Under the pieces are notes generated by a model that saw nothing but the letters and a program-made list of their open reading frames with translations, did no database searches and was not told the DNA's origin. 57,716 nucleotides of DNA, taken from IMG/VR virus record IMGVR_UViG_3300044759_000129, positions 1 through 57,716 of that record, one strand, 5' to 3'. Origin of the DNA: a virus. The translations under genes and the position numbers were made by a program. This document shows, in pieces, positions 163 through 57,716 of the stretch (the stretch's first letter is position 1; each line of letters begins with the position of its first letter).

Positions 163-591
163 CTAGCGGGTGGCCAGGGCGGGCTGGCGCGAGCGGGCCA
201 CCGTCCAGAATGGCCCCTGCCATTCGGCCTCGGGTAGCATCCGGTCATGTCCCGGATGGCCGCCGTTCGAGGCCGGATGGCTGGCGGTTGCGGTCGGGTA
301 TCCGGACGGGGCGGACGGGTGGTCATCGTGAGTCCGCACGTAGGCATCCATGATCCGGATGGCTTCAGCCACCGTGACGGGCCGTTCCTCCTCTCCATAA
401 AAGGCGGAGGGCCGCACCCCTAGGACATTCGCAAAGCGCGGGAGCTGGTCACACTCGATCTGCCGAGCACCCCGTTCGTAGTGCGACAGCGCGGACTGTG
501 AGATGTGCAGCATCTCCGCCAATTCCTCCTGACTCAGCCGCCGCTCCCGCCTGATCTCTCGTAGCCGGTCACCTACCCGCTGGGCCGTCAT
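163..591 (-). CDS. XRE-family HTH repressor (cI-like)
   Basis: Internal ATG at 591 of ORF 163..636, preceded by GGAGGGA. HTH motif LSQEELAEMLHISQSALSHYERG. Divergent from the cro-like operon. Confidence 0.8.
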   Translation of the reverse strand: MTAQRVGDRLREIRRERRLSQEELAEMLHISQSALSHYERGARQIECDQLPRFANVLGVRPSAFYGEEERPVTVAEAIRIMDAYVRTHDDHPSAPSGYPTATASHPASNGGHPGHDRMLPEAEWQGPFWTVARSRQPALATR

Positions 592-731: not shown

Positions 732-920
732 ATGTCGCTGCTGGACCTCAAGCCGATCACCACCAACCTCGATCGCCGCCAGCTTGCCACCCTCAAGAAG
801 ATCGCGCGGGACCGAAGAATGACCCTCTCCGCGTGCATCCGTGACTTCCTTGAGCGGGGCCTGCACGACTGGCAGCGCGACGAAGCCCGACGTGCCAGCG
901 AGCGAGACGGTGTCGCATGA
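732..920 (+). CDS. Ribbon-helix-helix (CopG/Arc-like) protein
   Basis: Internal ATG of ORF 624..920 with GGAG upstream. Motif NLDRRQLATLKKIARDRRMTLSACIRDFLERGL. Confidence 0.7.
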   Translation: MSLLDLKPITTNLDRRQLATLKKIARDRRMTLSACIRDFLERGLHDWQRDEARRASERDGVA

Positions 921-1219
921 GCACCGTCCACACCCCCGGCGTTGGCGCCAGGCTGCGGGAATTCCGTACCCGCCGGGGCTGGTCCACCCGCAAGCTCGCA
1001 GCGGCACTCGGGATCTCTCAACCGATGATCAGCTACTACGAGCGTGGGCTCAGCAAGATCGACGCGGACTTCCTGCCCCAGATGGCGGATGTCCTGGGCG
1101 TGCAGCCCGGCGCTTTCTACGGGGAGGAAGAGCGGCCGATCAGTGTGGCGGAATTGCTTCGCCGCCTCGAAGAGGCCCTGCGCCAGCAGGATCAGCCCGT
1201 GCAGGAGCAGCCGACATGA
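917..1219 (+). CDS. XRE-family HTH protein (Cro-like), paralog of 163..591
   Basis: Motif WSTRKLAAALGISQPMISYYERG. Shares the tail FYGEEERPxSVAE with the repressor. ATGA overlap with the upstream gene. Confidence 0.8.
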   Translation: MSTVHTPGVGARLREFRTRRGWSTRKLAAALGISQPMISYYERGLSKIDADFLPQMADVLGVQPGAFYGEEERPISVAELLRRLEEALRQQDQPVQEQPT

Positions 1220-9251: not shown

Positions 9252-9496
9252 TTTCGAGCAGGCGTATCTTCCGTTGTCTCCAGCCGGGCTGCACCCGCGA
9301 GGTCAGTGGGCCGGGCCACCGCTGCCGGTCCTGTGCACGCCGCTCCCGCTGGGACACCTATCACCGCGAGCACCGTGGGATTGACCCGGTCGCCGCCAAG
9401 CAGGAGGTGGTGCGGCTGGCGCTGGCCCCGGACCGCAGCCCCGCGTGGTTCACCCAATGGGAGACGGCGCTCGCTGCGTGGAGGAACGCGGCATGA
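9248..9496 (+). CDS. Zinc-ribbon-like hypothetical protein (82 aa)
   Basis: CLQPGC...HRCRSC. Confidence 0.5.
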   Translation: MISSRRIFRCLQPGCTREVSGPGHRCRSCARRSRWDTYHREHRGIDPVAAKQEVVRLALAPDRSPAWFTQWETALAAWRNAA

Positions 9497-9544
9497 CCCC
9501 ACACCATGCGCTGAGACGCGTTGTGGCGTACGGAGGGACGCGCA

Positions 9545-9778
9545 ATGGACGTGTATGACTATCGGGGCCAGCGCCAGGACGAGCCCGACAATCGGGACGA
9601 CGCGCTCTGGATGGCGGGCTACGAGCAGGGCGTCGCCGAGGGCGTCAAGATGGGGACGGCGCTCATGGACCAGGTGCGAGAGGCGGCCCGGGAGGTCTAT
9701 CGCTGGAAGGGCTCGCCCGATACGCCCTGGCACGCGGCCATCACCGCGCTCGAGGCCCTGCTCGAGGCGGAGGCATGA
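9545..9778 (+). CDS. Hypothetical protein (77 aa)
   Basis: GGAGGGA SD plus internal ATG of ORF 9521..9778. Confidence 0.5.
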   Translation: MDVYDYRGQRQDEPDNRDDALWMAGYEQGVAEGVKMGTALMDQVREAAREVYRWKGSPDTPWHAAITALEALLEAEA

Positions 9779-10068
9779 GCCTGCCGCCCGTCACGGAGAA
9801 GCAGCTTCAGGCGCAAGTCCTCGATCTCGCCCACGTGCTGGGCTGGATGACGTACCACTCCTGGATCTCGATCCGTAGTGCGCCAGGATGGCCGGACCTC
9901 GTCCTGCTGCGCCCACCCCGGATCATCTTCGCCGAGCTCAAGACGCAAAACGGCCGCGTCAACGTCGCGCAGCACCAATGGCTCGATGCGCTCGGCGACT
10001 GCCCCGGCGTCGAGGTGTTTTGTTGGCGCCCGTCCGACCTCGAAGCCATCGCCGAGCTCTTGCGGTGA
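9775..10068 (+). CDS. VRR-NUC domain nuclease
   Basis: Motif GWPDLVLL...IFAELKTQNGRVNVAQHQWLDAL. Confidence 0.8.
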   Translation: MSLPPVTEKQLQAQVLDLAHVLGWMTYHSWISIRSAPGWPDLVLLRPPRIIFAELKTQNGRVNVAQHQWLDALGDCPGVEVFCWRPSDLEAIAELLR

Positions 10069-10138
10069 ACCGGTGAGACGAAACTGGACCCGCGTGGTGG
10101 TTGCACGACTCGACCGCAGAACACGGGAGGTGATACCG

Positions 10139-10534
10139 ATGCGTGACGACTTTTCGACCCTATTACGGTCCTACCGCGAGCGCGCCGGGCGCTCCCGCAA
10201 CAACCTCGCCCACGAGATTGGCATCGACCCTTCCTATTTGACCAGGTGTGAGCACGGCGACCGCGACCCCCCGCGCCAGCACATCATCGAAGCCCTGGCC
10301 CGCGCGTTGCGCATGAGTGTGCCCGAGCGCAACCGGCTGCTCGTGTCTGCGGGATTCGCGCCGCTTAGCGTGATGCAGCTCGGGGCCTGGGATGATGCGC
10401 TCCAGGCGGTCACGGATGTGCTCAACGACGTTCACCTGTCGCCTGAGGAGCGCGATGAGTTCCGGAGTGTGGTGCGCCTCATCGCTGCCCGCTGGCGCGG
10501 CGGCGCGAAGCTCAGCCCGCGGTTCGCCTCGTGA
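10139..10534 (+). CDS. XRE-like HTH transcriptional regulator (131 aa)
   Basis: GGGAGG SD plus ATG at 10139. Motif RNNLAHEIGIDPSYLTRCEHGDR. Confidence 0.7.
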   Translation: MRDDFSTLLRSYRERAGRSRNNLAHEIGIDPSYLTRCEHGDRDPPRQHIIEALARALRMSVPERNRLLVSAGFAPLSVMQLGAWDDALQAVTDVLNDVHLSPEERDEFRSVVRLIAARWRGGAKLSPRFAS

Positions 10535-10717: not shown

Positions 10718-10942
10718 GTGCATCGGGTAACCGTGATGCTGAGTGATGAGGAGTGGGCGGCGGTGCGGGAGGAGGCGCGGCGCGAGATGCGCACGCCCGC
10801 CCACCAGGTGGTGTACTGGGTGCGGCGTGGGCTGGCGGTCCGGCACGCGGGCGTCGCCCGGGAACCCGGTGGGGAGCTGCGCGGGGGTCCCTCACCAGGC
10901 GAGGCGCTCGCAGATCGCCGTGAACTCGGCGAGTCCGGCTGA
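10718..10942 (+). CDS. Ribbon-helix-helix protein
   Basis: GTG start after GGAGGA. Motif VTVMLSDEEWAAVREEARREMRTPAHQVVYWVRRGL. The 3' end overlaps the convergent endolysin reading frame. Confidence 0.55.
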   Translation: MHRVTVMLSDEEWAAVREEARREMRTPAHQVVYWVRRGLAVRHAGVAREPGGELRGGPSPGEALADRRELGESG

Positions 10943-11146
10943 GCCGCCTTGCACCGCCTTTCTCGCCGCCGGCCAATCACCGGCCTCGCACATCGCCTTG
11001 ATGCCACGTTCTCTCCAGTAGCACGCGAACACCTCGGCCGCGATCCCCGCCTCGAGCGCTTTGTCGGGATTGTTGACGAGCTGGTCCCCGACCCCGATCA
11101 GGTTGCCGTAGGTTCTATAGTTCGACTCCCAAGTAAGCTGGATAAA
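10892..11146 (-). other. C-terminal part of GH19-like endolysin, in the -1 frame relative to 11098..11625 (no start codon of its own)
   Basis: Hand translation FIQLTWESNYRTYGNLIGVGDQLVNNPDKALEAGIAAEVFACYWRERG... continues the GH19 motif YYGRGxIQLT. Confidence 0.7.
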
Positions 11147-11625
11147 TAGCCCCTCCCGTAGTATGGCCAGTACCGTAAGTTTTCTTTACGCCACGCCTCG
11201 CCGACCCAGAACGCTTCGCGTACCGGCTCGAAGGTGGAGGCCGTCTCAATCTTGGTGGTGGCTACCACGCCCGCCGCACTCGGCTGCGACCACTGGTTGT
11301 AGAGGTGGAGGCTGGCGCTGATGCCAGGCCAGTGCAGCCGGATGTTCTCCAGCGGCACCTGGTCATTGCAGGCGGCGCGAATTTCTTCTGCAGACCAGAA
11401 CTGCCAAGGGTCGCCAAGGACGGACGGTGGTGGCGGGAGCGGCGCGGCGAGCAGATCGGCGACCGATGCCTCCGAAAAGGTGTAGCAGCCCGCGCCGGGC
11501 ACATCGACCAGCACCGCATTCGTGAACGCCTGATAGGTCCCGCCCATCGGATGGGGCAGCTCCTCGGTCAGCGGGTCACCAAGTCGGCCCTGCCACTGTT
11601 CAACCCGATCCGAGATGTTTGTCAT
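11098..11625 (-). CDS. GH19 (chitinase-like) endolysin, N-terminal and catalytic part as sequenced; interrupted by a frameshift
   Basis: AGGAGGAG SD plus ATG at 11625. Motif KIETASTFEPVRE...YWPYYGRGY, then premature divergence and a stop at 11098. Confidence 0.7.
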   Translation of the reverse strand: MTNISDRVEQWQGRLGDPLTEELPHPMGGTYQAFTNAVLVDVPGAGCYTFSEASVADLLAAPLPPPPSVLGDPWQFWSAEEIRAACNDQVPLENIRLHWPGISASLHLYNQWSQPSAAGVVATTKIETASTFEPVREAFWVGEAWRKENLRYWPYYGRGYLSSLLGSRTIEPTAT

Positions 11626-19212: not shown

Positions 19213-19623
19213 CTAACTTATGAAAAGGAGTCCCTCAGAGGCGACAGTAGCTGTTACATCGGTTCCGTTCCCGGTAAAGGAAGCGTCGAACCAGGCGATG
19301 GGCCGATCATTGGCGGCCGTCCCGTCGACGTGCTCATAGAGCAGGATGCCCGCCGCGGCGCGGGTGCCCGCCCCAAGGGCGGTCCACACAATGGGGCTGG
19401 TCACGGTGAACTCCGCCCGGTCGTTCGTCGCGTCCTGCGCAATGGCCTCGCCCCCCATGGTCTTGCGCACGTAGCCGCTGCCGTCGTACTCGTCGAGCGT
19501 GCCGATGGCCGACAGCGTGGCGGCATCCTCATCGGTATCCGCGGTCGTATTGGTCATGCAGATCAGCATGCGACTATCGACGGTCGACAGGTTAAGGAGC
19601 GCCGTGCCCAAACGGAGCTTCAT
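19213..19623 (-). CDS. Hypothetical structural-module protein (136 aa from first ATG; possibly starts at ATC 19647)
   Basis: ORF track. The only strong SD (GAGGAGG, 19662..19656) precedes the in-frame ATC at 19647. Confidence 0.6.
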
Positions 19624-19667
19624 TGGCGTATATACAAAATCGGTGATTTTCGTTACCTCCTCGCGGA

Positions 19668-22964: not shown

Positions 22965-23734
22965 CAGGGGAGTCCAGTAAAGGGGTATGCGGCTCCGGAG
23001 CCACCCCCGTAAAGAGCAGCCCGCTCCGCTGCTGATAAGACTTTTTTCCAGTACCCGGCCTCATCGACCCGTCCATCCAGGGGGAGCACGCCGGCCCGCG
23101 CGCCCAGCTCAAACGGGGCGGTGCCCGCGAAGACCCCGGCGCTGTGGGCCACGACCTGCGCCGTCGTGGCATTCCCCTGCACGGTGATCTGGTTGGCCGC
23201 CGCGTCGTGAATCAGGGTCATGAAGTACCAGGTTGCGACGATTGGCGTTCCCAGCACATTCATCTGGATCGTCACATCGGTCGCGGTGCCGTCGGAAGAG
23301 AGCAGCCAGATGAAGTTCCCCGCCCCGCTGTCATAGTAGAGGGTGTAGGACGCCTGCCCGGCGCTCCACTTGCTTACGAAGATAGACGTGGTCACCGTGG
23401 TGAAATAGACCCAGCACGCGATGCTGAAGTCAAAGTTGCCGACGGCCAGCGCCGCGTTGTGCGCCACCGTCAATGACTCAGTATTCGCCGCCGTGAACTG
23501 CGCCGCCGTGCCCACCTTGCCCGGATTACTCGTGACGGTGTTGACATCGGTCAGATGGCTGGTGCCAACACTATCGTTGCGCGTGCCCGAGGCTTCGTCG
23601 AGCTTCCAGTAGCCGGCCAGGTCGGTGAGCAGGGACGACCCGCCCGGCACGCCGGCCCCCGGCGTCCCCCCGGTCGCGGCATACAGCGTGCCAAAGCGGC
23701 CGCCGAGCCGGGTGTGGCGCAGGTTCGTCGGCAT
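22964..23734 (-). CDS. LamG-domain protein (256 aa)
   Basis: The ATG at 23734 overlaps the upstream TGA. About two-thirds amino-acid identity by eye to the tailspike C-terminus. Confidence 0.75.
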   Translation of the reverse strand: MPTNLRHTRLGGRFGTLYAATGGTPGAGVPGGSSLLTDLAGYWKLDEASGTRNDSVGTSHLTDVNTVTSNPGKVGTAAQFTAANTESLTVAHNAALAVGNFDFSIACWVYFTTVTTSIFVSKWSAGQASYTLYYDSGAGNFIWLLSSDGTATDVTIQMNVLGTPIVATWYFMTLIHDAAANQITVQGNATTAQVVAHSAGVFAGTAPFELGARAGVLPLDGRVDEAGYWKKVLSAAERAALYGGGSGAAYPFTGLP

Positions 23735-24390
23735 CAGGCGAGCTGACTGCCGGAGCCGGCGGCCACGTTCACGATCAGGTTCGCCGTGCCCGCATCCGTC
23801 TTTGCTTCGATGCAGCCCATACCACCGGGCCCCTTGGAGACGCGGAGTTCGAAGACCTGCTCGGACAGGAGCTCGAAGTAGGCCGTTGAGCGGGCCATGG
23901 CGTTCATGGCCAGCACCGTGACGCTGGAGTCGAGCGCCACCGACACCTCCCAGCGCGTCCAATAGAGCGGCGCGGTGGAGCCGGCTACATTCTCTGGACG
24001 CGGGCTGGTGGTATCGACCAGTCGGGCTTTGAACCAGTCCGTCGGGACCGTCCAGGTGACGTTGCCGTCCACCGCGAGGGTGGCGCCGCCGCTGGCCGTG
24101 CCGTCGGTCGCGGTGATGGTGGCCCAGGTCGAGTCCGTCTTCCAGTATTTGACGGTGAGCACGCTGGCCGTGCCATTCGTGTTCCCCACATCGACGTTGA
24201 CGCCACGGAAGGGGATGTGGCTGCCGACGTAGAGGTAGTCGGCGTTGGCGGCCGTGCTCATGGAACTCAGGGTGAGGGACGTGGCGGTACTGGCGTCCTG
24301 CAGGCTGCCACTGCCGTCGGTTGCCGTGGCACCATCGTCGGCCGTCAAGAGCACGGTCAGGTAGGGGTTGATGGCGATCTGCGCCACCAC
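23734..24390 (-). CDS. Virion structural protein (218 aa from GTG; true start possibly upstream)
   Basis: ORF track. The in-frame open, coding-like extension reaches 24570 with no canonical start codon. Confidence 0.6.
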   Translation of the reverse strand: MVAQIAINPYLTVLLTADDGATATDGSGSLQDASTATSLTLSSMSTAANADYLYVGSHIPFRGVNVDVGNTNGTASVLTVKYWKTDSTWATITATDGTASGGATLAVDGNVTWTVPTDWFKARLVDTTSPRPENVAGSTAPLYWTRWEVSVALDSSVTVLAMNAMARSTAYFELLSEQVFELRVSKGPGGMGCIEAKTDAGTANLIVNVAAGSGSQLA

Positions 24391-24574
24391 GGCGGTGGCG
24401 AGGTTGCGCGGGCTGATAAAGAGGTGGTGCGTGCCGTCCGGAATCTGGACAAAGGCGGCTGTTGTGGTCAGGGCGCTGCCGCCCCCAGCGGTAGATACGC
24501 TGCGTAGTTCTCCTAATGGTCCGCTGTGGGTTTCGGTGGCGATGGCAGTACCCTCGCTTTCTCCTGGGCGCTAA

Positions 24575-29475: not shown

Positions 29476-30411
29476 ATGGAACGACGGAGCAAGAGCAAGC
29501 AATGCTCCCAGTGCGGGAAACCGCTGTCCTATGGAGCCGGCACGGTCTGCCGCGATTGTTGGCGGGCCAACACCGTGAAGGAGATGCCCCATTGTCTCGA
29601 CTGCGGGATTGAACTCTCGACCCGCAGAAGCACCCGATGTCTGGTTTGTATGCGACGGTACCGGGCGGAACACGCTGCTGAGCATCGGTGTATCGAGTGC
29701 GGTGCTCCCGTCGAACACCGCGCGATCCTGTGCCTGGCCTGCCACACGAAGAAGGTGAGCCGGGAAGCCAAGCACTGCACCGATTGCGGCGTGCAGTTGC
29801 AATCCCGTCGTACGACCCAGTGTCGGGAGTGCTTTCGGAAGAGTCATATGGTGCTGGGCGAACTGCCCTCCTGCAAGAAGTGCGGCGTACGACTGCGCAG
29901 CCACAAGGCGAAGCTTTGCCGTGTCTGTTGGCGGGCCGAGCGAAGCGACAATCGCCCCTCGTGTTCCGTGTGCGGCAAGCCCCTGGCGCTCTACCATGGA
30001 GGATCGGTCTGCCGTGCATGCCTGCTGCAGCAAAGCGACGAGTCGTGGCCGCACTGCCTTGACTGCGGAAAGAAGCTGTCCCACCGAGGCGCTACGCGAT
30101 GTGGCCCCTGCTACCGCAAACGACAACACGAAATCGCACTCGCGGGTGGCAATCGCAATCTCTTCAACTCGCAGAGTGTGCGGCGATTGCTGAAGGGCGT
30201 GCCCTGCATGGTCTGTGGCGTGGTGAAGGCACACGAGTCCCTGTACGAAATCCACAAAGTGGACCCGCCCAAGGGCTATGTACGAGGCAACGTCCTGAAA
30301 GCATGCCTCGACTGCCACAAGCTTCATCATCGCCACTTACTCGCCATGCCCGATACCAGTATCATGGAGACACATTGGGATGTGGCTATGCGGCACGAAG
30401 ACCAACGTTGA
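29476..30411 (+). CDS. HNH-type endonuclease with tandem array of CxxC...CxxC zinc ribbons
   Basis: About nine C-x2-CG-x(8-12)-C-x2-C modules, then CMVCG...EIHK...CLDCHKLHH. Antisense to the late operon. GC looks lower than the flanks. Confidence 0.7.
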   Translation: MERRSKSKQCSQCGKPLSYGAGTVCRDCWRANTVKEMPHCLDCGIELSTRRSTRCLVCMRRYRAEHAAEHRCIECGAPVEHRAILCLACHTKKVSREAKHCTDCGVQLQSRRTTQCRECFRKSHMVLGELPSCKKCGVRLRSHKAKLCRVCWRAERSDNRPSCSVCGKPLALYHGGSVCRACLLQQSDESWPHCLDCGKKLSHRGATRCGPCYRKRQHEIALAGGNRNLFNSQSVRRLLKGVPCMVCGVVKAHESLYEIHKVDPPKGYVRGNVLKACLDCHKLHHRHLLAMPDTSIMETHWDVAMRHEDQR

Positions 30412-31285
30412 ATCTGTCGTCCGATGCTCCCCCACCGAGAGTAGAAGGTGCAATAAGTCTCTCAGCGAAGTTATAAATTACATCGACAAGTACTCCCCAT
30501 CCCGTTTCCAGGATTTCGTACCTCACGTGCGTCTGGGGCTTGCGCTGCATGATGAGGGCCACGCCGCGCTTGTGACCGAACCACGAATAGGACTGGTTGG
30601 CCGCTGCGGGGTTGTTATTGGCCAGGCTGGATTCGTAGACGGGGGCGCCGTAGACCTTGCCGATCATCGCCTCGGTGATGGCGCGGGTGGCCCGGTCCTG
30701 GCCGACGTAGAGCTGACTGACGAACTTGTCGATCTTCAGCAGCCCAATGTGGAACGCGGGACTGACGTACCAGAAGCGCTCCGACTGCGGGACGTCGCCG
30801 TCATTGAAGTACTGGACGGCACGGAGGAGGTCGTCATCAGTCGGGTCGGCGCCGAGGGTGCCGACGAGCTGGGAGAAGGACGACGGGAGCGACGCCAGGC
30901 CGCTCGTTATGTCTCCTTCGATATAGGACGTCAGGGAGTAGCCGCACGCCCCGGTGTACTCGGCACGCAGGTCGATATTGGCCTGCAATTCGGCGATATC
31001 CTCAACCAAAAACGCGACATATGCTTGCCGGCTAATGGTGATTTGCTGGCGCGTCTCGGTGATGTTCGCCCACGTTGCCGACGCGTCCTCGGTCTTCACC
31101 CGTACGGCCGGGTTGCTGCGGTCCTGGATGTTCAGCACGCGGCCCATGCGCATCTCGGCCTCGTACTTCCTGTCCACTTTTTCTGACAGCACGGTGGCCG
31201 CTTCGGTCGCATCCGAGACATGTCGGGACCAGATAGTTGGCAGGAAGTTCGCAGCTGGGCTAACGCCAGTCGTGTTTACCGCGAT
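30386..31285 (-). CDS. T7-like (HK97-fold) major capsid protein; proposed ATC start at 31285 (first canonical start is GTG 31192)
   Basis: AYVAFLVEDIAELQANIDLRAEYT resembles T7 gp10 DIEDAMNHYDVRSEYT. The capsid N-terminal motif FLPTIWS lies upstream of the GTG. Confidence 0.75.
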   Translation of the reverse strand: MAVNTTGVSPAANFLPTIWSRHVSDATEAATVLSEKVDRKYEAEMRMGRVLNIQDRSNPAVRVKTEDASATWANITETRQQITISRQAYVAFLVEDIAELQANIDLRAEYTGACGYSLTSYIEGDITSGLASLPSSFSQLVGTLGADPTDDDLLRAVQYFNDGDVPQSERFWYVSPAFHIGLLKIDKFVSQLYVGQDRATRAITEAMIGKVYGAPVYESSLANNNPAAANQSYSWFGHKRGVALIMQRKPQTHVRYEILETGWGVLVDVIYNFAERLIAPSTLGGGASDDRFNVGLRAA

Positions 31286-31333
31286 TGTGGGCCACCTTTC
31301 TGCGCCTTTCGGCGTCTAACGTGTCTGTTCGCG

Positions 31334-32338
31334 TTAGCGACGCCGCCCGTTGGCGCTCGCCATGGCCACCTGGTCATACAACCGGGGATTTTTCTTCAGC
31401 TCCTCCAGCCGTTTCTCCAGCGGCCAGTTGTCCACCTCCTGGGCGGACGGGATGCGACCACGTCCACCACCACCACCAGACTGGATGATGGGCGTGTTCT
31501 GGGCATCGACCAGCCCGCGTTGGGCGTTCACGGCCCGCTCTTCGCGCCGCGCCTTCGTGCGGGCCGCCGTCTCGTCCTTCTCCATCTGGCGGCCGTGGGC
31601 CTCAGCGGCTTTCCACCACTCCTTCAAGTGTTGGTACATGCCGTCGTCAAAGGTGCCCGGGTAGCTCTTGTCGGACAGATCCTTCCGCACCGTGGGCGGC
31701 ATGTCGCTGTCGTGGAAGCGCTGGAAGGCCCGCATCGCGGCCGCTTCGGCACTGGCTTTGGTCCGCGCCACCGCCTGGTAGGTCTGCAGCTCGCGGCCGT
31801 AATACGCCTGCGCGTTCTGCCACCCGGCATCCTGATTAGCCCAGTAGTCGTGCCACTGCTGGCGCAATTGCTGCGCCGCGATGACGTCGGTCTCGCCGTA
31901 GTCGTGGAGCTGCTGCTCGATGCCGGGTCGGCTCGCCAGGTCCTGCTGGTAGGCCGCCTGCGCCGCCTTCATGTTGGCCTGCAGGTTCTGGTAGGCCGCC
32001 TGCTCCTGCTGCTGCTGCAGGCGCTGGTTCGCCGCTGTCTGCGCCCGCTGCTCGGTGAGGGCGCTGAGCTCGGCCGCCAGCTTCGGGTTGCCCTTGACCA
32101 GGTCCTCGAGGGTCGGCTCGGGTACCACCGCCGCCGTGGGAGATTCCTCGGATGCGGAGGGAGGTTCCTCCGCGTCCTCGGTATCCGTGTCCTCGTCCTC
32201 GTCGTCGGGAGCGTTGAGCGCGAGGTCGTCCTCGAACTCAGCCTGCTCCAGCGCGTCCGAAGGCGTGACGACCTCTTCGGCTTCGGGGGCCGCTGCTGAC
32301 TCTTCGGTGGGTTGCAGCTCTTCGGGCTCGTCGGGCAT
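31334..32338 (-). CDS. Scaffolding-like protein (acidic N-terminus, Q/A-rich coiled coil)
   Basis: Lies immediately upstream of the capsid gene; composition. Start chosen at ATG 32338, downstream of a terminator. Confidence 0.6.
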   Translation of the reverse strand: MPDEPEELQPTEESAAAPEAEEVVTPSDALEQAEFEDDLALNAPDDEDEDTDTEDAEEPPSASEESPTAAVVPEPTLEDLVKGNPKLAAELSALTEQRAQTAANQRLQQQQEQAAYQNLQANMKAAQAAYQQDLASRPGIEQQLHDYGETDVIAAQQLRQQWHDYWANQDAGWQNAQAYYGRELQTYQAVARTKASAEAAAMRAFQRFHDSDMPPTVRKDLSDKSYPGTFDDGMYQHLKEWWKAAEAHGRQMEKDETAARTKARREERAVNAQRGLVDAQNTPIIQSGGGGGRGRIPSAQEVDNWPLEKRLEELKKNPRLYDQVAMASANGRRR

Positions 32339-32356
32339 GCATCTGTTCCCGAGGCA

Positions 32357-32404
32357 ACGAAAAAGCGCCTTCCCCATCCCCGGCCGGGATAGAAGAAGGC
32401 GCTT
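32357..32404 (-). terminator. Rho-independent terminator/attenuator upstream of the scaffold gene
   Basis: On the minus strand: AAGCGCCTTC, a 22-nt loop, GAAGGCGCTT, then TTTCGTT. Confidence 0.55.
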
Positions 32405-56599: not shown

Positions 56600-57634
56600 T
56601 CACCTGACCAGGCGGGCGATCCCCAGCCGATCCACGACGGATGGGCCCTCGAGCGGTTCGCGCACCGCCGCCACTTTGGCATAGATGTGCGTCACACTCA
56701 GATTGGTGTGTCCCAGCAGCGCCTGCAAGTGAAAGAGCGCCCCCGGGTGATTCTCCAGATAGGTGGTCGCAAAACAATGACGAAGGAGGTGCGGTGTCAG
56801 CCGTACCCCTTGCTTGCCGAGACCACTCTCCAGCCCCCATACCGTGAAGAGATGCCGCATGCCATCCTCCGTCAGCGGCGTCCCCTGCCAGGTCAGGAAG
56901 AGCTCGCGGCTCAGCGTCTCCGGCCGCTGCCCGCTCCACCGCACCAGCAGCTTCGCCGTCACCGCGTCGAACTCCACATACCGCTCCTTGTTCCCCTTCC
57001 CTAATACCTTGGCCCGCTTCCCTTTCAGGTCCACATCCTGCAGCTGGAGGCGGCACAGCTCCGCGACCCGGACCCCCGTGGCCAGCATGAAATAGACGAT
57101 CGCCAGATTGCGGTCGCGCAGTGGGCGATGCTCGATTACCTGGAGGATCGCCTTGATCTGCTCGCCCGTCAGCACCGTCATCACCCGCTCCACCACCTTC
57201 GGCAGCTTCAGCCCCTGCAGCACGTTGGTGCTGAGCAGCCCCTGCTCGTGGCAGTAGCTGGAAAAGGCTTTGAGGGCTTTGGCATGGGCGTGCAGGGTTT
57301 TGGGACTGCGCATCACCGTCGAGCCCGTGCGGGGACTCACCGCCGGCGTCTCTTTGACCCACACCATGAACGTGCGCGCCTGCTCCAGGGTAAGACAGGT
57401 GATGGGGGCGCTGTCGGCGTCGGGGATGAGCTGTTGCTCGAGGAGATAGGCCAGGTAGCGGGTCGTCACCAGCTTGTACCACTTGCGGGTGGTCTCAGCG
57501 CGACTGCCAATCTCTAAATCGAGCTGGTGCTGCGCCTGGGCACTGCGGTAGGTGGGGACGGCGGGGGGCCGCTTAGCCGGCATGGCGGAGGTGGGGCGGG
57601 AACGGCGTCTGGGCAACCGACGAGACGAGACCAC
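56600..57634 (-). CDS. int: Tyrosine recombinase / phage integrase
   Basis: HLLRHCFATTYL and LLGHTNLSVTHIYAKV catalytic motifs. The start lies inside the terminal repeat. Confidence 0.9.
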   Translation of the reverse strand: MVSSRRLPRRRSRPTSAMPAKRPPAVPTYRSAQAQHQLDLEIGSRAETTRKWYKLVTTRYLAYLLEQQLIPDADSAPITCLTLEQARTFMVWVKETPAVSPRTGSTVMRSPKTLHAHAKALKAFSSYCHEQGLLSTNVLQGLKLPKVVERVMTVLTGEQIKAILQVIEHRPLRDRNLAIVYFMLATGVRVAELCRLQLQDVDLKGKRAKVLGKGNKERYVEFDAVTAKLLVRWSGQRPETLSRELFLTWQGTPLTEDGMRHLFTVWGLESGLGKQGVRLTPHLLRHCFATTYLENHPGALFHLQALLGHTNLSVTHIYAKVAAVREPLEGPSVVDRLGIARLVR

Positions 57635-57716
57635 AGGGGTCCTCCGGCATAAGGTGCCAGGCTCCGGCCATCATGACCGCACACCCTGGTACTTCCAGCC
57701 TACGCCGCCCAGACCT
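57590..57716. repeat. Terminal direct repeat, copy 2 (identical to 1..127)
   Basis: Identical to the window start. Confidence 0.9.

Follow-up and report, generated by a model that had tools for sequence, protein, structure and literature searches.

Predicted AUC initiation of the major capsid gene and two other genes in a temperate phage genome

The stretch of viral DNA analysed here (hereafter the window) comprises all 57,716 nucleotides of the IMG/VR record IMGVR_UViG_3300044759_000129 and is a circularly closed temperate phage genome of ~57.6 kb (about 57,589 bp) with a G+C content of 67%. Its major capsid gene lies on the minus strand, and comparison with homologs makes it very likely that translation of this gene starts at an AUC codon (positions 31285-31283), which precedes the first canonical start codon by 31 codons. 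ATC initiation had been proposed in a first-pass annotation made from the letters of the window, and the proposal is supported by the homologs, whose Met1 column coincides with the ATC codon. The finding is broader than that annotation saw, extending to two more ATC genes in the window and to other clades of the capsid family, in which capsid genes with an ATC or ATA start recur.

The start of the major capsid gene

The first canonical start codon of the capsid open reading frame (ORF) is GTG at 31192, which gives a product of 268 amino acids (aa), in agreement with the ORF listing. The frame stays open upstream of this GTG as far as TAG at 31318-31316. As the first-pass annotation had stated and the translation bears out, none of the 41 codons in between, which read TPKGAERWPTIAVNTTGVSPAANFLPTIWSRHVSDATEAAT, is ATG, GTG or TTG. 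The in-frame ATC at 31285 does lie 9 nt past GAAAGG (31300-31295), as stated in that annotation, and AAGGTGG at 31298-31292, with a 6-nt spacer to the ATC (31283..31285, minus strand), is a better reading of the Shine-Dalgarno (SD) sequence. The energy of the duplex with the anti-SD sequence is -7.5 kcal/mol at the ATC; random positions have a mean of -3.3 kcal/mol and 8% of them reach -7. At GTG 31192 the value is -2.5 kcal/mol, i.e. this codon is without an SD. The revised coding sequence (30386..31285, minus strand) would encode an HK97-fold protein of 299 aa followed by a stop codon, on the evidence of the phrog_267 match, the homolog lengths and the AlphaFold model described below. The ATC-initiated product is predicted to read (M)AVNTTGVSPAANFLPTIWS..., with the N-terminal peptide AVNTTGVSPAANFLPTIWSR. 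A product started at the GTG would begin at residue 32 (MLSEKVDR...) and would lack the 31-codon N-terminal segment (31193..31285, minus strand), or N-arm, for which the substitution pattern and family conservation speak.

A protein search against 5.8 billion proteins returned 248 matches, and lengths and N-termini were assessed on the best 120. About 110 of these 120 homologs are 296-302 aa long, cover 96-97% of the 309-aa open frame and have their N-terminus exactly at the ATC. The homologs (>100, ~299 aa) begin with MAVNTTG(I/V)(T/S)PAANF(L/I)P(T/E)(I/V)W, and their Met1 falls on the window ATC, column for column; from the ATC the window reads IAVNTTGVSPAANFLPTIW. The N-terminal capsid motif named in the first-pass annotation is real, the family consensus being MAxNTTGITPAANFxPxxW in alignments that include one of 61 sequences. 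Judged from the alignments, the coincidence of the ATC with Met1 is not due to chance. The residue encoded by GTG 31192 is an internal Val in most homologs.

The profile of phrog_267 (major head protein) matches residues 18-273 of the extended ORF with an E-value of 2.4e-29, and the match begins 24 residues upstream of GTG 31192. Pfam gave no match for the window capsid protein at E 0.1; many of its homologs carry a precomputed assignment to PF19821 (Phage_capsid_2). An AlphaFold2 model built from 61 sequences had a predicted local distance difference test score (pLDDT) of 83.6 and a predicted template modelling score (pTM) of 0.78. When this model was searched against the PDB, the best matches were the capsids of cyanophage A4 and mycobacteriophage Che8, with those of Douge, T5, T7 and HK97 also near the top; entries 9jwb, 8e16 and 8zdh and the T5, T7 and HK97 capsids all had a probability of 1.00. 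The capsids of Che8 and of A4/Pf-WMP4-type podoviruses (phrog_267, PF19821) share fold and family with the window capsid (Foldseek E 1e-18, TM 0.74-0.76), and are distant from it at 26-29% tblastn identity. Residues 1-31 lie before the first helices of the model and have low modelling confidence, which is expected of an N-arm that gains order only in the assembled shell. On its modelled structure, the window protein is an HK97-fold major capsid protein, and the profile match, the predicted fold and the position in the head module beside the scaffold gene place it among the phrog_267/PF19821 capsids.

The same ATC is found in a JGI contig of 57,621 bp (L001) that is 100% identical to the window over 6.8 kb and possibly comes from the same population. 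It is also kept in a related genome of 58,329 bp (L003/L133) from a different sample, 3300044461, whose capsid is 98% identical. In L003, the capsid frame opens only 7 codons 5′ of the ATC, and the 24 nt preceding the ATC are identical to those of the window. Over the 31 codons from ATC to GTG, the two genomes differ by 12 synonymous and 3 non-synonymous codon changes, and over the other 268 capsid codons by 76 and 3, respectively (88 versus 6 overall). The N-terminal extension is also conserved as protein across lineages that are only 57-62% identical. This pattern of substitution shows the predicted 31-codon extension to be coding and under purifying selection. Together with the retention of the ATC in a diverged genome, it indicates that the extension is translated and that the ATC is not a sequencing error. 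The closest full-length relative of the window capsid (L002, 84% identity) has a TTG start.

Start codons across the capsid family

DNA of relatives was obtained from viral, metagenome and genome collections and by looking up truncated database proteins, and the codon at the Met1 column was read. Among 43 distinct start regions, ATG occupied this position in 24, GTG in five, TTG in five (including the closest relative, L002), ATC in five and ATA in three; one region had an N-terminal extension in place of the Met1 codon. ATH codons (H being A, C or T) therefore account for 8 of the 43 starts when looked-up proteins are included, and for 3 of about 40 (~7%) in two unselected collection scans. 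At least four ATH-truncated proteins are found among the best 120 protein clusters. The presence of TTG in the closest relative and of GTG in others indicates that turnover of the start codon is common at the capsid start.

Clades were assigned on a neighbour-joining tree, L119 and L167 being placed from sequence comparison. The ATH starts fall into a clade of the window and L003 (ATC), with the TTG-starting L002 as sister; a clade of L086 and L119 (ATC); L109 (ATC), whose sister L112 starts with ATG at a distance of 0.08; and a clade of L083-85 and L167 with ATA behind SDs of the TAAGGAGG type. Both L086 and L119 read TAA GGT ACC ATC, so that only two codons of open frame precede the ATC, and between the two loci codons 2-7 show four synonymous changes and one conservative change. 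Such a short open frame before the ATC, together with mostly synonymous differences after it, leaves no other usable start in these two loci. An SD-like purine run is located 5-9 nt upstream in all ATH cases. Taken together, these putative starts show that capsid genes independently acquired ATC/ATA in at least four clades and kept it within clades.

Several short or split homologs were considered as ATH candidates and set aside. The short homolog P0021 has a missed TTG start, and L113 carries a 47-aa N-terminal extension. P0060, P0109, P0017 (at L091) and the split loci L126/L127 are capsid genes interrupted by introns or insertions; P0022 and P0084 share the variant N-terminus of P0017 in the alignment. 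In L126 (1256-1491, also in L127), Rfam detected a group I intron (RF00028, 51.1 bits) before about capsid residue 111. The capsid gene of L087 is interrupted at about 1040-1300, where MAVSTQGITPANV is followed by about 250 nt and then by SVIPEVW. Upstream of position 1501 in L088 and L091, an unrelated ORF stands where the capsid N-terminus should be, and by eye this ORF resembles a LAGLIDADG homing endonuclease. Rfam gave no match on L087, L088 or L091.

In L168, a phage of the ATA clade, a DUF5672 gene (9396-10157) follows the capsid gene; its called start, 159 nt past the capsid stop, is an ATG without an SD. Three in-frame ATC codons (9504-9510), located after a strong hairpin and a G-run, are a candidate start for this gene. 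A second ATH gene in L168 is unconfirmed, as the Pfam domain begins downstream of these ATC codons.

Two further ATC-start genes and other features of the genome

The window was scanned for ATH codons that have an SD in front of them and precede the first canonical start of their ORF, and the genes so detected were then examined for homology. Two genes were flagged besides the capsid gene. Gene 2 encodes a virion-module protein of 269 aa (23734..24543, minus strand), with ATC at 24543-24541 and the SD GAGGG at 24555-24551 (7-nt spacer, -8.6 kcal/mol). Its homologs are 264-281 aa long and begin with MATE..GPLGELRAASTAGGG, the Met1 being in the column of the window ATC. The window reads IATETHSGPLGELRSVSTAGGG, in which I is the ATC at 24543, and the predicted N-terminal peptide is ATETHSGPLGELR. 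The first canonical start of gene 2, GTG 24390, is 51 codons downstream of the ATC, and the database version has 236 aa instead of 269, a loss of at least 33 residues. Despite many downstream substitutions, L133, L134 and L135, from two other samples, keep the ATC. In the gene-2 family, ATH starts were found only in the window lineage; the other members start with ATG.

Gene 3 encodes 144 aa (19213..19647, minus strand) and directly follows a tailspike-like gene. Its ATC is at 19647-19645 and its SD, GAGGAGGT, at 19662-19655 (7-nt spacer). The Met1 of its homologs, whose sequence starts MA(D/S/N)F(V/W)YTPAK, is in register with ATC 19647, and the predicted N-terminal peptide is TDFVYTPMK. The SD energy is -12.9 kcal/mol at this ATC versus +0.3 at ATG 19623, the SD-less codon 8 codons past the ATC at which the database version starts; a product from this ATG would begin MKLRLG. 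In L133, GTG stands at the codon where the window has ATC, so the change of start codon is recent. With an SD followed by ATC at the Met1 of homologs, as in the capsid gene, genes 2 and 3 almost certainly start at ATC. The features that mark an AUH-start gene were found, namely agreement with the start position of orthologs, absence of a canonical start upstream, SD spacing and, downstream of the AUH, in-frame purifying selection in the capsid extension and protein conservation across the families. All three ATC genes are operon-internal, located 49, 31 and 20 nt past the preceding stop for the capsid gene, gene 2 and gene 3, respectively. Two CTG codons on the plus strand (7835 and 9703) precede the first canonical starts of two ORFs in the early region and have strong SDs in front of them (-8.6 and -11.0 kcal/mol, respectively); these may be further non-canonical starts.

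The circular closure of the assembly is marked by a 127-bp direct terminal repeat (1-127 and 57590-57716). A tyrosine integrase (56603-57592, minus strand) and cI/Cro-like helix-turn-helix (HTH) regulators (166-531, minus strand, and 917-1216, plus strand) show that the phage is temperate. The genome holds roughly 60-70 genes, and Pfam was run on 50 predicted proteins; matches were limited to HTH and ribbon-helix-helix (RHH) regulators, RecT, AAA_25, VRR_NUC, GIY-YIG, PadR and the integrase. Rfam gave no match over the whole window. The scan of genome collections for relatives yielded one 11-kb contig of a Gemmatimonadales metagenome-assembled genome, which carries an ATG-start relative and is uninformative on the host.

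The structural module, otherwise on the minus strand, contains a plus-strand gene (29476-30411) immediately after the capsid gene; it encodes a Cys-rich protein of 311 aa with zinc-ribbon (DZR) repeats. Plus-strand genes also stand directly after the capsid gene in L002. In L133, an opposite-strand gene of 246 aa without a Pfam match follows the capsid gene. On the minus strand, a frameshift at GGCTATTTATCC seems to divide a lysin-like gene into two parts (about 11098-11625 and 10892-11185) that meet near 11150. One of the frames closes with ...RYWPYYGRGYLSS...*, and the second runs on with ...FIQLTWESNYRTYG; adding one T to the T-run would give a continuous YYGRGYFIQLTWESNY. Pfam matched neither half. 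The split may reflect a homopolymer assembly error, a pseudogene or slippage.

Alternatives, mechanism and meaning

Gene callers place the start at GTG 31192 in the window and in relatives (P0001, P0111 and P0116, each 268 aa), which would give a capsid protein without the N-terminal arm and leave the upstream frame as an untranslated leader. This choice deserves very little credence, since the 31 upstream codons evolve as coding sequence (12 synonymous versus 3 non-synonymous differences) and are conserved as protein among the lineages of 57-62% identity, while the GTG itself has no SD (-2.5 kcal/mol) and aligns with the internal Val of most homologs. The ATC could also stand for an ATG misread in sequencing or assembly, or be a rare variant of ATG, from which it differs by one base change, and the contig does contain a probable 1-nt homopolymer problem in the lysin-like gene near 11150. 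However, the same ATC is present not only in L001, possibly of the same population, but in the clearly diverged L003/L133 from sample 3300044461; the ATC of gene 2 was seen in a third sample (L134); and independent ATC/ATA cases occur in unrelated ENA, Logan and JGI assemblies. An error of this kind is scarcely credible. A third explanation takes the ATC codons as inactivating mutations in a decaying or defective prophage whose genes are silent. The element is temperate, with its integrase and cI/Cro-like genes, its lysin-like gene looks frameshifted, and three weak starts in one genome could mean relaxed selection. Against this, purifying selection on the capsid has been strong since the split from L003 (88 synonymous versus 6 non-synonymous differences), the ATC and the translation initiation region are kept in both genomes, the 57.6-kb genome is circularly closed with a 127-bp terminal overlap, and ATH is kept in diverged members of other clades (L086 with L119, L083 with L167). 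Decay is thus very unlikely to explain the ATC codons.

The region upstream of the capsid ATC offers one more alternative. The scaffold-like gene (31334..32377, minus strand; ATG at 32377 or 32338, 334-347 aa) ends with TAA 49 nt before the ATC, and the window, L002, L133 and L168 all have a large SLT/LPD38 protein, a small ORF, the scaffold-like gene and the capsid gene in this order. The first-pass annotation had noted, correctly, that the scaffold ORF is in the same frame as the capsid ORF, separated by TAA (31336-31334), five codons and TAG, and had considered double read-through conceivable but much less likely than ATC initiation. Read-through of both TAA and TAG, yielding a scaffold-capsid fusion, would draw on this shared frame with two stops in between. 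Both stops lie in the arms of an intercistronic hairpin (31310..31345, minus strand; fold energy -17.1 kcal/mol, z -2.7), which spans the scaffold stop just upstream of the capsid ribosome binding site and is not followed by a U-tract. L003 keeps the hairpin (L003:2960-2996), its loop lengthened by an insertion of 2 nt, and L002 has it in another sequence (L002:2935-2982). Insertions of 2 nt and 1 nt in the L003 spacer between the two genes, where the second stop is TAA instead of TAG, mean that the frame is not conserved, and the L002 spacer is unrelated in sequence to that of the window. Neither genome shows conservation of the frame or coding-type conservation across the stops; a hairpin is found instead. 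The arrangement of TAA, five codons and TAG is therefore attributed to RNA structure and not to coding, and read-through was rejected, as its low earlier rating had anticipated. Starts at other upstream near-cognate codons (ACG 31315, AGG 31297) face the facts that the L003 frame opens past the ACG position and that only GGT and ACC precede the ATC in L086 and L119. Fusion and upstream starts alike can practically be discounted. The hairpin may set the scaffold:capsid ratio through attenuation, processing or mRNA stability; a promoter and terminator scan around the capsid gene gave nothing relevant.

Initiation at the capsid ATC also has several points against it. A predicted mRNA fold pairs the capsid SD with codons 16-19 (z -2.3) and would lower initiation. 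The deliberate look-up of truncated proteins enriches ATH among the 43 start regions, and across the family the SDs of ATH starts are not stronger than those of ATG starts, so that no compensation is seen. ARAGORN found no phage tRNA in the window able to decode AUC as a start, and Pfam recognised no translation factor (IF3-like or bS21) among the 50 window proteins, which leaves an efficient use of AUC unexplained. Finally, AUA, AUC, AUU and CUG initiate at 1-2% of the AUG level in Escherichia coli (10.1101/063800), which is hard to square with the most abundant protein of the virion unless host or context is different here.

For AUC initiation of the capsid gene, the following mechanism can be proposed. 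AAGGUGG, 6 nt upstream, would position the 30S subunit at the AUC, which would then be read with a third-position mismatch by the initiator fMet-tRNA (anticodon CAU), inserting fMet; the product would include the N-terminal arm of the HK97-fold capsid protein. The initiator tRNA is proposed as the decoder because near-cognate initiation is established in bacteria and because AUC-initiated green fluorescent protein (GFP) in E. coli carries an N-terminal Met according to mass spectrometry (10.1101/063800). ATC would arise from ATG by G+C-biased mutation in the 67% G+C genome, and it would persist if an operon-internal AUH codon with a good SD gives adequate output in this phage-host system. We infer, as the simplest reading, a host or context with good tolerance of AUH and a supply of ATC from G+C-biased mutation.

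Near-cognate AUH initiation as such is already known, from the alternative starts of genetic code table 11 and from infC and pcnB. Table 11 lists ATT, ATC, ATA and CTG as alternative starts, and AUU/AUC are frequent in Mycoplasma gallisepticum. ATC is thus a recognised but very rare start that some organisms tolerate much more than others; by contrast, it would start 3 of roughly 60-70 genes in this single 67% G+C phage genome. As is proposed for the window genes, the AUH codons of E. coli infC, which encodes initiation factor 3 (IF3), and pcnB stand behind an SD and are read by the initiator tRNA. However, infC and pcnB are low-abundance host regulatory or enzymatic genes, whereas the window genes are phage late structural genes that include the one for the most abundant virion protein. 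Among annotated starts, AUA, AUC, AUU and CUG account for 0.004-0.024% (PMC5499595). Across bacteria, infC uses AUU or AUC (PMC5499595; 10.1101/063800), and this codon is the target of IF3 autoregulation (PMC5499595). The sensing of IF3 by the weak codon is a regulatory circuit of infC, and none is shown for the window genes; an IF3-sensitive regulatory role for late genes is possible by analogy. Phage genes can be translated from AUA, AUU or AUC at 5-15% of the AUG level (PMC5499595). The T4 rIIB change of AUG to AUA and the truncated murein hydrolase of phage HB-3 in E. coli are mutants or constructs with reduced output, unlike the AUH codons described here, which are natural, conserved and recurrent. 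What is new is AUH in a major capsid gene, three such starts in one phage structural module, and their independent recurrence and retention across the capsid family.

As a consequence of these starts, gene callers truncate the capsid by 31 residues (the whole N-arm), gene 2 by 51 and gene 3 by 8. Public databases hold such truncated versions (P0001, P0121, P0241, P0111, P0116 and P0027), so that structure prediction, family profiles and N-terminal mapping begin from the wrong sequence. The phage group affected is widespread in freshwater, groundwater and soil.

For a major capsid protein, a start codon with 1-2% of the AUG output in E. coli would not be expected. The ATC/ATA starts might have been selected as part of how late or structural genes are expressed and not be the result of neutral drift, although we consider this doubtful. 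The recurrent independent origins at the capsid gene, the retention within clades and the three genes in one structural module would fit selection over accident. Possibly, the hosts discriminate poorly against AUH, a property of the host lineage that would be visible only through its phages. Alternatively, weak codons may tie virion-protein synthesis to the state of the initiation machinery, for example to falling IF3 per mRNA late in infection, and so act as a translational timer or dosage control. A near-isogenic ATG/ATC pair (L112 and L109) is available, as is a GTG/ATC pair at gene 3 (L133 and the window), and the recurrence in four clades lends itself to natural comparisons of the conditions under which AUH initiation is tolerated or exploited by bacteria and phages.

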